From Escherichia phage vB_EcoM_11B_SA_NWU: DNA of 64,000 bases. The notes under the pieces are model-generated. The model was not told the DNA's origin, did not search any database, and saw only the letters and a list, made by a program, of their open reading frames with translations. The stretch lies in sequence record OR062527. The stretch is one strand, 5' to 3'. This document shows positions 50,976 through 53,980 of the stretch, piece by piece. The translations under genes were made by a program, and so were the position numbers. Within the stretch, counting starts at the first letter, position 1, and each line of letters opens with the position of its first letter.

Positions 50976-51944
50976 TTATTTCAGAAGAGTAACCTCAGCG
51001 ATTTCTTCCCAACCGTTTTTGTCGGTCATAATAAAGTCAGCAAGATAAAGAGCAGTACGCAGTGAAACATTGCGTAAACGATTAACATTGACTTTCATCC
51101 ATGATAATGCTTTATAAGTTTCTTCATCAGAAAGACCGCGCTTTTGCATCATGTCAGTTGAAAGAATAACATCTTCAACCCTGACCATAATTTCTTCATT
51201 AGTGTGAACACCCAAATCCAAATAAACCGAGCGGGACACTAATGCTTGTAAATGTGGAGCAAGTTTAGTACCACGGTCTAATTCGCGGTCAATGTCAACG
51301 TTTGTGATAAAAACAATCGTTCCTTTAAATTCAAACTCACGCTCAATACCTTTTTCTTCTAAGTAAGAAGATGCAGTGCTCCAGCAGACTTTACGGGTCT
51401 CTCCAGTGTCCAGAGCAGCTTTTAGAAGATTAAGAATGTCCATATCAGAGAAAACATCCACATCATCAATCAAAAGGACAGAATTCTCTTCACGATTATT
51501 CCAAAGCTGCTCATAAAGACCAATACCAGAGATTTTACCATTAATGCTTTTATATTCAATGTATCCAATATCATTTGCTTTATTTAAAGCTTTATCTAAA
51601 GAATATGTTTTACCAATACCTGCCGCACCAGAGATAATTAATGAACGAATGTTTCCGTTAATAATACCATTCGTCATCATTCCCATAACATTAAATCTTT
51701 TATTAATGCGGGTTTTCATATCTTCATATGATTCTTTAACTTCTTCAACTTTTACACCATCATATGAAATATCTGACTTGTAAACCCAAACACCGCGACG
51801 TTTACCGTCAATTTCAACAAAAACTTTACCATCTCCTTGTGCATCTACCGGAGCATTATCTGGGAACCATTCGCCTAAGAGCTCAAAAGTTCCAGAGATT
51901 TCTTTACCGAAGTAGATACCCTTATTGATAGTTACAGTTTTCAT
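50976..51944 (-). CDS. P-loop ATPase, AAA-like (about 322 aa; start at Met7)
   Basis: Walker A GAAGIGKT and Walker B LLIDDVD; GGAG Shine-Dalgarno before the ATG at 51944. Confidence 0.6.
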   Translation of the reverse strand: MKTVTINKGIYFGKEISGTFELLGEWFPDNAPVDAQGDGKVFVEIDGKRRGVWVYKSDISYDGVKVEEVKESYEDMKTRINKRFNVMGMMTNGIINGNIRSLIISGAAGIGKTYSLDKALNKANDIGYIEYKSINGKISGIGLYEQLWNNREENSVLLIDDVDVFSDMDILNLLKAALDTGETRKVCWSTASSYLEEKGIEREFEFKGTIVFITNVDIDRELDRGTKLAPHLQALVSRSVYLDLGVHTNEEIMVRVEDVILSTDMMQKRGLSDEETYKALSWMKVNVNRLRNVSLRTALYLADFIMTDKNGWEEIAEVTLLK

Positions 51945-51974
51945 TTTATTCTCCAATTTCACATTTGTTTTGAT

Positions 51975-52010
51975 AGGGTAATAGTATCACACTACTACCC
52001 TACTGTAAAC
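51975..52010 (-). promoter_or_regulatory. T4-type early promoter upstream of the AAA-like ATPase gene
   Basis: GTTTACAGTAGGGTAGTAGTGTGATACTAT; flanked by AGGGTA/TACCCT inverted repeats. Confidence 0.5.
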
Positions 52011-52013
52011 AAT

Positions 52014-52277
52014 TTATTTTATTGTTCGCCAAATTTTTACTGCTTCACGACGAGATACTTCTATAGCTCCAAGTTCTACAGCTTTTTGGCGTCGTCGAGC
52101 ATGTAAGTCATAATGTTTAATGCGTTTATCTTGAAACCAAGAACGTTTCATTCCTATTGCTTCTGCTATTTCATGGAGCTCTTCAATATCTCCATCAGTG
52201 AACATATGACAATTTTTAGTTGGATGACCGCGAAGTTTCCATCCATGATTCATTAAAACATCTACGTAAACTGTCAT
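52014..52277 (-). CDS. DUF4031-like small protein (87 aa)
   Basis: Pattern MTVYVD...HMF...ELH...IG..R.WFQ...HYDL...A...GA recalled as typical of the DUF4031 family. Confidence 0.5.
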   Translation of the reverse strand: MTVYVDVLMNHGWKLRGHPTKNCHMFTDGDIEELHEIAEAIGMKRSWFQDKRIKHYDLHARRRQKAVELGAIEVSRREAVKIWRTIK

Positions 52278-52423
52278 TGATTCTGCTCCAAATATGTTTC
52301 TATAATTTTCTGGGCGAGATAAACTGCGTTATCTTCAGTTGCATCTTCTAAGAAACTTTCAAAACACTCTGAAATTTCTTCTGTGTCAATCAACTTTTTT
52401 ACTTCAATTGGTGTAATTTTCAT
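52274..52423 (-). CDS. acidic micro-ORF (49 aa), weak support
   Basis: Hand-translated MKITPIEVKKLIDTEEISE...; ATGA overlap with the downstream start. Confidence 0.35.
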   Translation of the reverse strand: MKITPIEVKKLIDTEEISECFESFLEDATEDNAVYLAQKIIETYLEQNQ

Positions 52424-52480
52424 TTTGTTTTCCGTTTATGTGTTTGTTTTGATAGTTGTATAGTACCATAAAATTTTGAA

Positions 52481-52506
52481 ATAAAAAAGGGAGCCCGAAG
52501 GCTCCC
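52481..52506 (-). terminator. rho-independent terminator after the nucleotidyltransferase-like gene
   Basis: GGGAGCC-UUCG-GGCUCCC then UUUUUUAU. Confidence 0.7.
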
Positions 52507-52508
52507 TA

Positions 52509-53522
52509 TCATTTATAATAACTTCGATGGTTTTCAAGATAGACCTTCTCAAGGAAGTCATCCCAGAAACCCATGTCTACTTTTTGTTGCATACCGTTCT
52601 TAGAAGCTTCAGTAGATGCTGCTTCTACTTGATCGACCACATCTTCCAAAAACTCTTGAACTGTTTTAAATGGATGTTTACCCAACTTCACGTCGAGAAT
52701 AAATGGAGCATCTTTGAGTGGATAGACCAAGTCGCCAGTTTTGTAAATTTCCAATAGTTGAAGTCCACCACGACAAGCATGACTCAGAGCTTTCCAGTCA
52801 ATGCCTTCATTCGCTTCAGCCTTACGAGCACGTTCGCCGTATTCAGCATCTAATTTGTTCAGTGACTGCTTAAGCTCAATAATAGAAAGCGTTGTCTGAT
52901 ATTTACGACCCAACACAGTGTAGAACGTTTGTGGACCTGTTTTCTCATGATTATGGAATACCCATTCACAGAATTCATTCTCTGGAAGACGATGCTTAAT
53001 ATCTTCAACCTTGGTACGACGCAAGTGGTCTGGAATACCTTCTTGATAGTCAACCCATTGCTCAGGGATTTGATTAACTACTTTCAATACATCGCGTAAT
53101 GCTGCCAAACGAGAACCCTTGACACCGTATTTAGAAGCTTGCTTGCGAACATATCCTAAATAGGATTTCATATTAGTCGTATAGAAACGAGAGCGGTTGT
53201 CTTGAATAAACTTCCACACATCAGGCAAATCAGATTTAACCACTAGTTCAGGTGGAGTGTGAAGCATATCCAATGCTACAGTTTCACCATCTGCTGCTAA
53301 TTTAAAGAAATACTTAAGACTGTATAGTTCATGGTCAATATCATCTTTAGTGTTTTTAGATGATGTGTTGTTGGTGTTTTTACTCATGTGCTCTTTGACA
53401 TTTCCGATAAGAATATCGCGAGCAGGAGGAACAAAGATTTCTTTAAAATCTACATCAGATTCTGGGGTAGAAGTTCCATAAAGATGACTACCAAAATAGC
53501 TTTTCATTACTGTTTTCATCAT
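52509..53522 (-). CDS. Pol-beta-superfamily minimal nucleotidyltransferase-like protein (337 aa)
   Basis: N-terminal GSHLYGTSTPESDVDF (GS-x11-DxD) motif; strong terminator downstream. Confidence 0.55.
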   Translation of the reverse strand: MMKTVMKSYFGSHLYGTSTPESDVDFKEIFVPPARDILIGNVKEHMSKNTNNTSSKNTKDDIDHELYSLKYFFKLAADGETVALDMLHTPPELVVKSDLPDVWKFIQDNRSRFYTTNMKSYLGYVRKQASKYGVKGSRLAALRDVLKVVNQIPEQWVDYQEGIPDHLRRTKVEDIKHRLPENEFCEWVFHNHEKTGPQTFYTVLGRKYQTTLSIIELKQSLNKLDAEYGERARKAEANEGIDWKALSHACRGGLQLLEIYKTGDLVYPLKDAPFILDVKLGKHPFKTVQEFLEDVVDQVEAASTEASKNGMQQKVDMGFWDDFLEKVYLENHRSYYK

Positions 53523-53980
53523 TCAGCCTTATATTCAATAACAGGACATACTTTAGCTTTACGAGCTTTTAAAAATTCAACGATAACCGATTTCTTGGGT
53601 TGAATAGGAGGTAAACCTTTATTTTTCCTATCAATGTTTTCTACGTGTAAAGCATAATCCTTTTTCCATTTATAATCTTTATATTTTTCACGCAAATGTA
53701 CAGGAATAACAAATAAACCAATAATAAGTAAAACAACCAAAAGCGCAAGTATAAATGCCGATGGAAGAAGAGTCCATAAACTACCGAAAATAAGCCAACG
53801 CTGTAGGCTTTCTGTACAAATAATTGTTAGCCCTACGAGTATAGCACATCCAAAAATAGAAACGAAAAATGTAGGAATAGCAATAGACCAAAAATATGCG
53901 CATAGTGTCTTAGGTCGTTGCCATTCATCGTTAAACAATTTGAATAATTTATAGTGCCAAGAGTTTTCATTAATAATCAT
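53519..53980 (-). CDS. membrane protein (153 aa)
   Basis: Multiple hydrophobic helices. Confidence 0.55.
   Translation of the reverse strand: MIINENSWHYKLFKLFNDEWQRPKTLCAYFWSIAIPTFFVSIFGCAILVGLTIICTESLQRWLIFGSLWTLLPSAFILALLVVLLIIGLFVIPVHLREKYKDYKWKKDYALHVENIDRKNKGLPPIQPKKSVIVEFLKARKAKVCPVIEYKAE

Follow-up and report, generated by a model that had tools for sequence, protein, structure and literature searches.

RNA repair was discovered in bacteriophage T4. The RlaP family of RNA-ligase-associated Pol-beta nucleotidyltransferases (PF10127) is described in Pfam as 'RNA repair pathway DNA polymerase beta family', and one protein assigned to it by sequence, the ortholog of T4 NrdC.11 (NP_049709), is analysed here together with its neighbours in the region 50976–53522 of Escherichia phage vB_EcoM_11B_SA_NWU (sequence record OR062527). 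The window, that is the whole stretch of DNA analysed, is 64,000 nt long, and the 20 kb surrounding the region were also compared. As a whole, the region is fairly probably an assemblage of three independent elements: an RNA-end nucleotidyltransferase (NrdC.11), a separate AAA+ ATPase (NrdC.10) and a mobile cassette carrying a DUF4031 gene.

Two RlaP enzymes from Pseudomonas RtcB operons have been characterised (Carruthers, Fatma and Huang, bioRxiv 10.64898/2025.12.29.696909). They act on RNA only, require a 3'-OH, add 1–2 nucleoside monophosphates (NMPs) and favour the 5' half of a tRNA mimic cleaved at its anticodon; the crystal structure of PfRlaP consists of a nucleotidyltransferase (NTase) domain and a helical domain, with a cleft between them. 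In the same preprint, the similarity network of PF10127 has T4 NrdC.11 in its cluster 5, and it was proposed that RlaP puts back the nucleotides excised by 'smart' ribotoxins, e.g. RloC, before ligation, the 3'-OH product being suited to 5'-phosphate ligases such as T4's. Iyer et al. 2021 (PMC7824862) had likewise predicted that jumbo-phage RlaP restores nucleotides before ligation, the distribution of RlaP being parallel to that of RNA ligases.

The region is 96–97% identical, over its full length, to more than 100 Tequatrovirus genomes, and the surrounding 20 kb display the same Tequatrovirus similarity pattern; judging from these similarities, the window (about 35% G+C, with nearly all genes on the minus strand) is a T4-like (Tequatrovirus) genome. 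Its counterparts in T4 (NC_000866) are nrdC.10 and nrdC.11, flanked by nrdC.9 and the homing endonuclease gene mobD, and what is seen here is this known nrdC.10/nrdC.11 segment with a mobile cassette between both genes. A sequence-only reading of the same DNA had joined three open reading frames (ORFs), coding for a nucleotidyltransferase, a DUF4031-like protein and an ATPase, into one functional cluster; all three are present, on the minus strand.

Family, fold and predicted role of NrdC.11

The assignment of the NTase gene draws on Pfam, PHROG, the T4 annotation, conserved alignment columns and an AlphaFold2 model:

52509–53522, minus strand: NrdC.11 ortholog, RlaP-family (PF10127) Pol-beta nucleotidyltransferase, 337 aa

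PF10127 matches residues 7–136 of this protein with 44.1 bits vs. a cutoff of 23 (E 2.6e-11), and phrog_388, labelled 'nucleotidyltransferase', matches it with an E-value of 2e-136. The protein is about 97% identical to the T2/T4 cluster (P0001), and homologs 95–99% identical to it are held by 470 Tequatrovirus-type records. At the level of all phages, tblastn found NrdC.11 homologs in 1518 records, the lowest identity (about 29%) being that of Vibrio phages, while protein searches returned 2909 and 533 matches; PF10127 was already annotated on nearly all of the 240 homologs listed.

The N-terminal peptide GSHLYGTSTPESDVDF, on which the sequence-only reading had been founded, is present, with a spacing of GS-x10-DxD (G11 S12, D23, D25) instead of the GS-x11-DxD given there. 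In an alignment of 133 sequences, G11, S12, D23, D25, D61 and D63 are each at least 90% conserved, and the conserved D23, D25 and D61/D63 columns indicate that the acidic triad is intact. Concerning the C-terminal part, G229, R231, K244, H248, A249, R251 and P268 are invariant in the same alignment, and a conserved motif, DWKAxSHAxR, was found.

The AlphaFold2 model, built on the 133-sequence alignment, is confident (predicted local distance difference test, pLDDT, 89.1) and comprises three modules, namely the NTase domain, a beta-rich insert (approximately residues 155–209) and a helical C-terminal domain (residues 214–336). Such a protein of 337 aa does not fit the term 'minimal' nucleotidyltransferase (MNT) used in the sequence-only reading, which applies to single-domain proteins of about 100–150 aa. 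Foldseek comparison of the model with the PDB gave weak matches (E about 4e-3) to 3c18, ANT(4')/KNTase, Hailong HalB, MNT, Tam41 and Cid1/TUT7. HEPN proteins were also among the fold neighbours, with a HEPN-like helical domain fused to the NTase, and neither cGAS, DncV, OAS nor any CD-NTase appeared among them. The choice between a CD-NTase-like and an MNT-like fold, raised in the sequence-only reading, is therefore answered by the model with a predicted KNTase-like architecture, in which the NTase is fused to a HEPN-like helical domain and which is not CD-NTase-like. Searches of the PDB with the NrdC.11 sequence or profile gave nothing significant, and neither the C-terminal domain nor the beta-rich insert, searched alone against Pfam (E ≤ 10), gave anything meaningful.

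The insert lies outside the PF10127 coverage, is shorter in some clade members (KPN8) and has weak Foldseek matches to a bacterial PH-like domain protein (3b77). It may serve for substrate recognition in the phage clade specifically.

The suggestion that the enzyme makes or sequesters a nucleotide signal finds no counterpart in these data: the protein is, in essence, a member of RlaP, an established nucleotidyltransferase family linked to another task, RNA repair, and no CD-NTase or CBASS model was matched in PADLOC or Pfam. The scan with PADLOC (E ≤ 0.01), whose models include those of the CBASS cyclases, had zero matches, as had the NCBIfam scan of the proteins of the cluster.

The gene neighbours were inspected on contigs carrying members of the NrdC.11 clade with 30–40% identity to the window protein. 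A RtcB gene lies directly upstream of one RlaP homolog (P0239, 221-kb scaffold), while on a 370-kb contig a gene for a phosphatase of the HAD_SAK_2 type ('Swiss Army Knife RNA repair') overlaps the start of another (P0185), whose gene is followed, within 4 kb, by those of an ATP-dependent ligase and a metallophosphoesterase. Two IMG/VR loci complete the picture, one with a Pnkp phosphatase domain (E 5.5e-45) directly upstream of the RlaP homolog (L174) and one with a full Pnkp (kinase and HAD) 1.3 kb downstream of it (L175). These four cases of RtcB, HAD_SAK_2 or Pnkp neighbours support an RNA-repair role for the phage RlaP clade.

A ProQ C-terminal-like gene (PF24203, E 1.7e-20; L118:5588-5992) was also observed immediately upstream of the RlaP homolog in six of the 49 loci lacking NrdC.10, a possible further RNA-related association.

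What was established here for NrdC.11 is that it belongs to the family, that its catalytic residues are intact, which class of fold it is predicted to have and that clade members have RNA-repair neighbours; its substrate and biological role we infer, and they would probably be the following. NrdC.11 would add 1–2 NMPs, without template, to the 3'-OH of a broken RNA, preferably the 5' half left when a tRNA is cleaved within its anticodon loop. During a T4-type infection, Pnkp would remove the 2',3'-cyclic phosphate, NrdC.11 would act next and Rnl1/Rnl2 would seal the ends, so that the phage would restore the nucleotides excised by 'smart' anticodon nucleases such as RloC. Viable T4 mutants lacking the nrdC.11 to mobD.3 segment have been described (PMC9825161), which fits a conditional, host-specific role.

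Several points weigh against this reading. The PF10127 match is limited to residues 7–136, and the C-terminal 130 residues alone do not match the family. The activity data come from Pseudomonas proteins, described in a preprint in which the biological role is itself a proposal. Of the approximately 56 non-T4-type loci inspected, just 4 had RNA-repair neighbours, most neighbours of RlaP homologs being unrelated (NUDIX/NAMPT, C5-methylase, UvrD helicase). No RNA ligase or Pnkp gene was found near nrdC.11 in the window, and in T4 itself pseT (Pnkp), rnlA (Rnl1) and rnlB (Rnl2) are 50–80 kb away from nrdC.11. As for the independence of the elements, the nrdC.11–nrdC.10 order kept in Tevenvirinae and Acinetobacter phages could reflect a functional link.

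NrdC.10 and its linkage to NrdC.11

The ATPase gene and the elements that separate it from, or precede, nrdC.11 are the following:

50976–51944, minus strand: NrdC.10 ortholog, AAA+ ATPase, 322 aa from ATG (frame open to a GTG at 51962, 328 aa)
51981–52009, minus strand: T4 early-type promoter-like site, GTTTACA-17-TGaTACTAT, before nrdC.10; its T4 equivalent lies between nrdC.11 and nrdC.10
52488–52507, minus strand: intrinsic terminator with an 8-bp GC-rich stem, a UUCG loop and a U tract (-17.7 kcal/mol, z -3.7)
53519–53980, minus strand: predicted membrane protein, 153 aa, phrog_944; stop codon and nrdC.11 start share an ATGA

The ATG at 51944 (322 aa), and not the GTG (328 aa), is probably the start of NrdC.10, since a GGAG stands six bases upstream of it and the PHROG and tblastn alignments begin there too. 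Both Walker motifs of the sequence-only reading, GAAGIGKT and LLIDDVD, are present. In the 328-aa numbering, the protein has an N-terminal beta domain (9–67), Walker A at 112–119 and Walker B at 163–169; K118 (Walker A), D166/D167 (Walker B), N221 (sensor 1), R244 and the lid residues R297/R302 are invariant, and the SRS motif that includes R244 resembles the SRC arginine finger of clamp loaders. The protein matches phrog_1250 (E 1e-166), PHROG clamp-loader families match at 1e-4, and the Pfam matches (AAA_14, AAA_22 and nSTAND) are all sub-threshold. Single-sequence and profile searches of the PDB gave weak matches to Cdc6 and RFC4, none of them significant, and the N-terminal domain alone gave nothing meaningful against Pfam (E ≤ 10).

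The AlphaFold2 model (pLDDT 90.6) displays the N-terminal beta domain, a AAA+ core and a lid, and its Foldseek neighbours, at about 1e-5, are Hda, RuvB, RFC/Rad24, ORC/Cdc6, Lon and dynein AAA modules, with a Foldseek probability of 1.0 for the AAA+ fold vs. Hda, RuvB, RFC and ORC. NrdC.10, which was called AAA-like as early as 2006 (PMC1524935), is thus a genuine AAA+ ATPase. Its orthologs occur in 1311 phage records, with 99–100% identical proteins in many phages; a word-indexed search gave 293 matches, and the family appears to be restricted to phages.

In many GenBank phage genomes, the orthologs of both nrdC.10 and nrdC.11 bear the label 'thioredoxin', even though neither protein is thioredoxin-like; the gene names nrdC.x are the apparent source of this misannotation.

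At the transcriptional level, the terminator follows the nrdC.11 stop codon directly, and an identical element exists in T4, where nrdC.11 and nrdC.10 are 114 bp apart and just this terminator, then such an early promoter, make up the spacer. The promoter at 52009–51981 precedes the ATPase gene only. As for nrdC.11, it lacks a separate promoter: its ATG and the stop codon of the 153-aa membrane-protein gene share bases, which makes nrdC.11 the last gene of the upstream transcription unit. Since a terminator and an early-type promoter stand between them, the genes do not form one operon. The strong terminator of the sequence-only reading therefore stands, as does one good early promoter, before the ATPase gene; the 'own early promoters' of the whole cluster do not, the terminator being inside the cluster, which it divides, the NTase gene lacking a promoter and that of a 49-aa ORF, described below, lacking its -35 part. 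A 7-bp inverted repeat, TAGGGTA...TACCCTA, also overlaps the nrdC.10 early promoter, across the spacer and the -10 region.

The genes just upstream differ from those of T4, where the HNH homing endonuclease gene mobD occupies the slot taken here by the 153-aa membrane-protein gene. No tRNA gene was found when the window was searched.

Could NrdC.10 and NrdC.11 nevertheless be a functional pair, in which the AAA+ protein would remodel, or deliver, an RNA or protein substrate to the NTase? Tequatrovirus genomes and Acinetobacter phage Ac42 alike preserve the arrangement of nrdC.11 ahead of nrdC.10 on one strand, with 0–3 small genes between them. In a census of 80 diverse IMG/VR loci centred on the NTase, with a reach of 6 kb, NrdC.10 was found in 31 and was absent from the other 49. 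However, all 31 linked loci come from lineages sharing the general T4-type gene order: their NrdC.10 is at least 61% identical to that of the window, and the gap between the two genes varies from 41 to 2318 bp and holds a terminator and a promoter. Outside T-even-like and Acinetobacter phages the two genes are unlinked: no NrdC.10 is found near the NTase of RB43 or of the Klebsiella jumbo phage KPN8; in the Vibrio phages phi-ST2 and F86 the NTase is elsewhere, F86 encoding NrdC.10 and the NTase apart; and no NTase is found near the NrdC.10 of the Vibrio phages D485 and D533 or of the jumbo phage SP27. The NrdC.10 gene of D485 is beside ribonucleotide reductase and topoisomerase genes, and that of D533 beside dUTPase, clamp-loader and helicase genes. 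Only lineages with the general T4 gene order thus show the linkage, and the spacer between the two genes is a slot that varies. An unrelated ATPase of the AAA_5 (dynein/MoxR) type, encoded one small gene upstream of a RlaP homolog in a 158-kb phage contig (L095:4554-5660), might have spoken for a recurrent pairing of an ATPase with the NTase, but it was rejected as a relative of NrdC.10 (hhalign probability 0.5%). Taken together, a functional pair is, in our opinion, unlikely. As a separate element, NrdC.10 would be a stand-alone AAA+ ATPase with a SRC-like arginine motif and its own early promoter, lying elsewhere among genes of replication and nucleotide metabolism.

The slot itself also varies in content: in phage ACG-C40, a close relative (L002:4073-4558), it holds an additional gene for a ModB-like RNA polymerase ADP-ribosyltransferase, which indicates that the spacer is a hotspot for the insertion of accessory genes.

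The DUF4031 cassette

In the window, the slot is occupied by two small genes and bracketed by a direct repeat:

52274–52423, minus strand: acidic ORF, 49 aa, phrog_6888; first gene of the cassette, its stop codon overlapping the DUF4031 start (ATGA)
52014–52277, minus strand: DUF4031 (PF13223) protein, 87 aa, phrog_4887; Pfam E 9e-21, 74.4 bits vs. a cutoff of 25.6
51938–51989: copy 1 of a 52-nt direct repeat (promoter -10, leader and start codon), 73% identical to copy 2
52417–52468: copy 2 of the repeat, upstream of the 49-aa ORF; it keeps TGgTACTAT, without the -35 segment of T4
L124, L129, L131, L132, L141, L142, L147, L149 and L151: other loci with the pair of DUF4031 and acidic ORF

The 87-aa protein had been called DUF4031-like, which the Pfam match bears out. 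D6, H24, H55 and D57 are invariant and C23 is nearly so in its alignment, a pattern of D and H residues that suggests a small metal-binding or catalytic site. The family counts 3172 cluster representatives (E ≤ 1e-3); single-sequence and profile searches of the PDB with the protein gave nothing significant. The acidic ORF, overlooked in the sequence-only reading, has 12 D/E vs. 4 K residues and a net charge of about -8.

DUF4031 is present in 334 phage records vs. 1518 for NrdC.11 and 1311 for NrdC.10, and the cassette is absent from T4. For the scan of the 80 viral loci, a narrower DUF4031 alignment was used, the diverse one being too divergent. Ten loci have the protein, its gene lying a short way upstream of nrdC.10 in five of them and some 2 kb downstream in the other five, and Klebsiella-type phages carry the cassette at another position. 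In nine of these ten loci the acidic ORF immediately precedes DUF4031, even at 38–45% identity, which shows that both genes travel together. They are translationally coupled and may form a two-component module, e.g. an enzyme with its regulator or mimic.

The two copies of the repeat are 479 nt apart and bracket the 479-bp cassette. Of the promoter before the 49-aa ORF, the extended -10 alone is left, the -35 part found in T4 being deleted. Recombination between promoter-early stem-loop (PeSL) motifs has been described in the hyperplastic regions of T4-type genomes (PMC2839356, PMC4122927), and a repeat-bracketed insert together with a missing -35 is a signature of it. The features of a PeSL-flanked indel are all seen here: on the upstream side a terminator with what remains of a promoter, on the downstream side a complete promoter, and on both sides the 52-nt repeat. 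Recombination at repeated promoter/terminator (PeSL-like) motifs would accordingly have placed the cassette after the nrdC.11 terminator and ahead of the nrdC.10 promoter, and the inverted repeat TAGGGTA...TACCCTA resembles the stem-loop component of such motifs.

In bacteria, no conserved operon was found around DUF4031 in 80 loci. The sole recurrent partner is DUF5131 (phage Gp37/Gp68), a same-strand neighbour in 10 of these loci, and among the ten longer DUF4031 proteins that were scanned, one fusion was found, to DUF1643 (P0419). Separately, a 721-aa protein with an ADP-ribosyltransferase domain is encoded near DUF4031 in four mycobacterial loci (e.g. L080:5651-7816).

Nothing ties DUF4031 to the NTase. 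The functional cluster of the sequence-only reading is not retained, given the terminator and promoter between the genes, the absence of linkage between NrdC.10 and NrdC.11 in many phages and a DUF4031 indel that T4 lacks; the apparent three-gene cluster comes down to a conserved gene order plus a mobile cassette. The region is part of the hyperplastic portion of the genome and probably carries three independent accessory elements, not one system.

Remaining alternatives and comparison with known systems

A dedicated counter-defence function of the NrdC.11 clade, with its beta-rich insert and HEPN-like domain, in place of simple tRNA-end repair, through the rebuilding of the wobble nucleotide removed by RloC-type nucleases or through HalB-like oligonucleotides or AMPylation of host HEPN RNases, perhaps with the help of NrdC.10, is in our view quite improbable when taken as a whole. 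If the RloC version were true, T4 Pnkp and Rnl1 could then complete the repair, and NrdC.11 would supply the third component hitherto lacking from the classic pathway of tRNA repair in T4.

Still less probable, and only faintly so, is a NrdC.11 that works like the Hailong HalB/MNT antitoxins, producing a decoy oligonucleotide (possibly protein-primed) or AMPylating a HEPN-type RNase toxin of the host. HalB and MNT are indeed among the fold neighbours, but the likeness, at 13–15% identity, exists at the fold level only, and the NrdC.11 family profile does not match the HalB or MNT sequences in the PDB. HalB (PDB 9dbh) is moreover a host defence protein of about 217 aa, which makes tyrosine-primed oligo-dA and has a channel partner, HalA; it has no sequence-level similarity to NrdC.11, and no HalA-like partner is present here, nor is there a HEPN gene next to NrdC.11 such as a HEPN-MNT module would have. 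By sequence, NrdC.11 is a RlaP protein, and the RlaP members tested extend RNA by 1–2 nt, while relatives adjoin RtcB or Pnkp.

The least credible alternative makes the NTase a CD-NTase/cGAS-like enzyme or sponge that, in one module with the ATPase and DUF4031, would counter CBASS, Thoeris or Pycsar: the gene does lie in an accessory, deletable T4-type region and has an intact acidic triad, but what it shares with CD-NTases (cGAS/DncV-like, CBASS) is the generic GS...DxD Pol-beta signature only, with no model match (CD-NTase, SMODS or Mab-21; only RlaP in Pfam), no structural neighbour, a different C-terminal domain and no effector or signalling context at a locus whose other genes are those of the membrane protein, the acidic ORF, DUF4031 and the AAA+ ATPase.

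Among proteins in which an NTase is followed by a HEPN-like helical domain, KNTase/ANT(4'), LinB and 3c18 are only 8–14% identical to NrdC.11, with which they have no sequence-family relationship, and KNTase/ANT(4')/LinB-type enzymes differ from it in having antibiotics as targets. NrdC.10 has Walker A and B, sensor 1, the SRC-like arginine and a lid domain in common with AAA+ proteins of the clamp-loader, initiator and RuvB types; unlike them, it has a family-specific N-terminal beta domain and remains below all curated Pfam thresholds.

As in the PeSL cassettes of Arbiol 2010 and Comeau 2014, a terminator stem-loop and an early promoter flank the small-ORF indel, and the promoter/leader sequence is doubled, with one copy on each side of the insert. 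It differs from them in that one promoter copy lacks the -35 part, the recombination event itself being deduced from the present sequence arrangement.

The closest comparison is that with PfRlaP and PaRlaP. NrdC.11 has the same Pol-beta catalytic motif, with three conserved carboxylates, its model has an N-terminal NTase domain, then a C-terminal helical domain, in a possible parallel to the PfRlaP structure, and some members of the phage clade adjoin RtcB or Pnkp, as bacterial RlaP genes do. By contrast, proteins of the phage clade (similarity-network cluster 5) exceed the Pfam model by about 90 residues, with the beta-rich insert at about 155–209 and a C-terminal half outside PF10127 recognition, and T4-type genomes keep the NrdC.11 gene away from those of RNA ligase or Pnkp. 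NrdC.11 is a candidate third enzyme of the T4 RNA-repair pathway, which would restore excised nucleotides before ligation. This prediction has already been published (Carruthers et al. 2025; Burroughs and Aravind 2016, as reported in papers that cite it), and no new kind of system is described here. To the comparison with RlaP, the present analysis adds the predicted KNTase/HEPN-like fold, the RtcB, Pnkp or HAD_SAK_2 genes beside members of the phage clade and an explanation of the apparent cluster.

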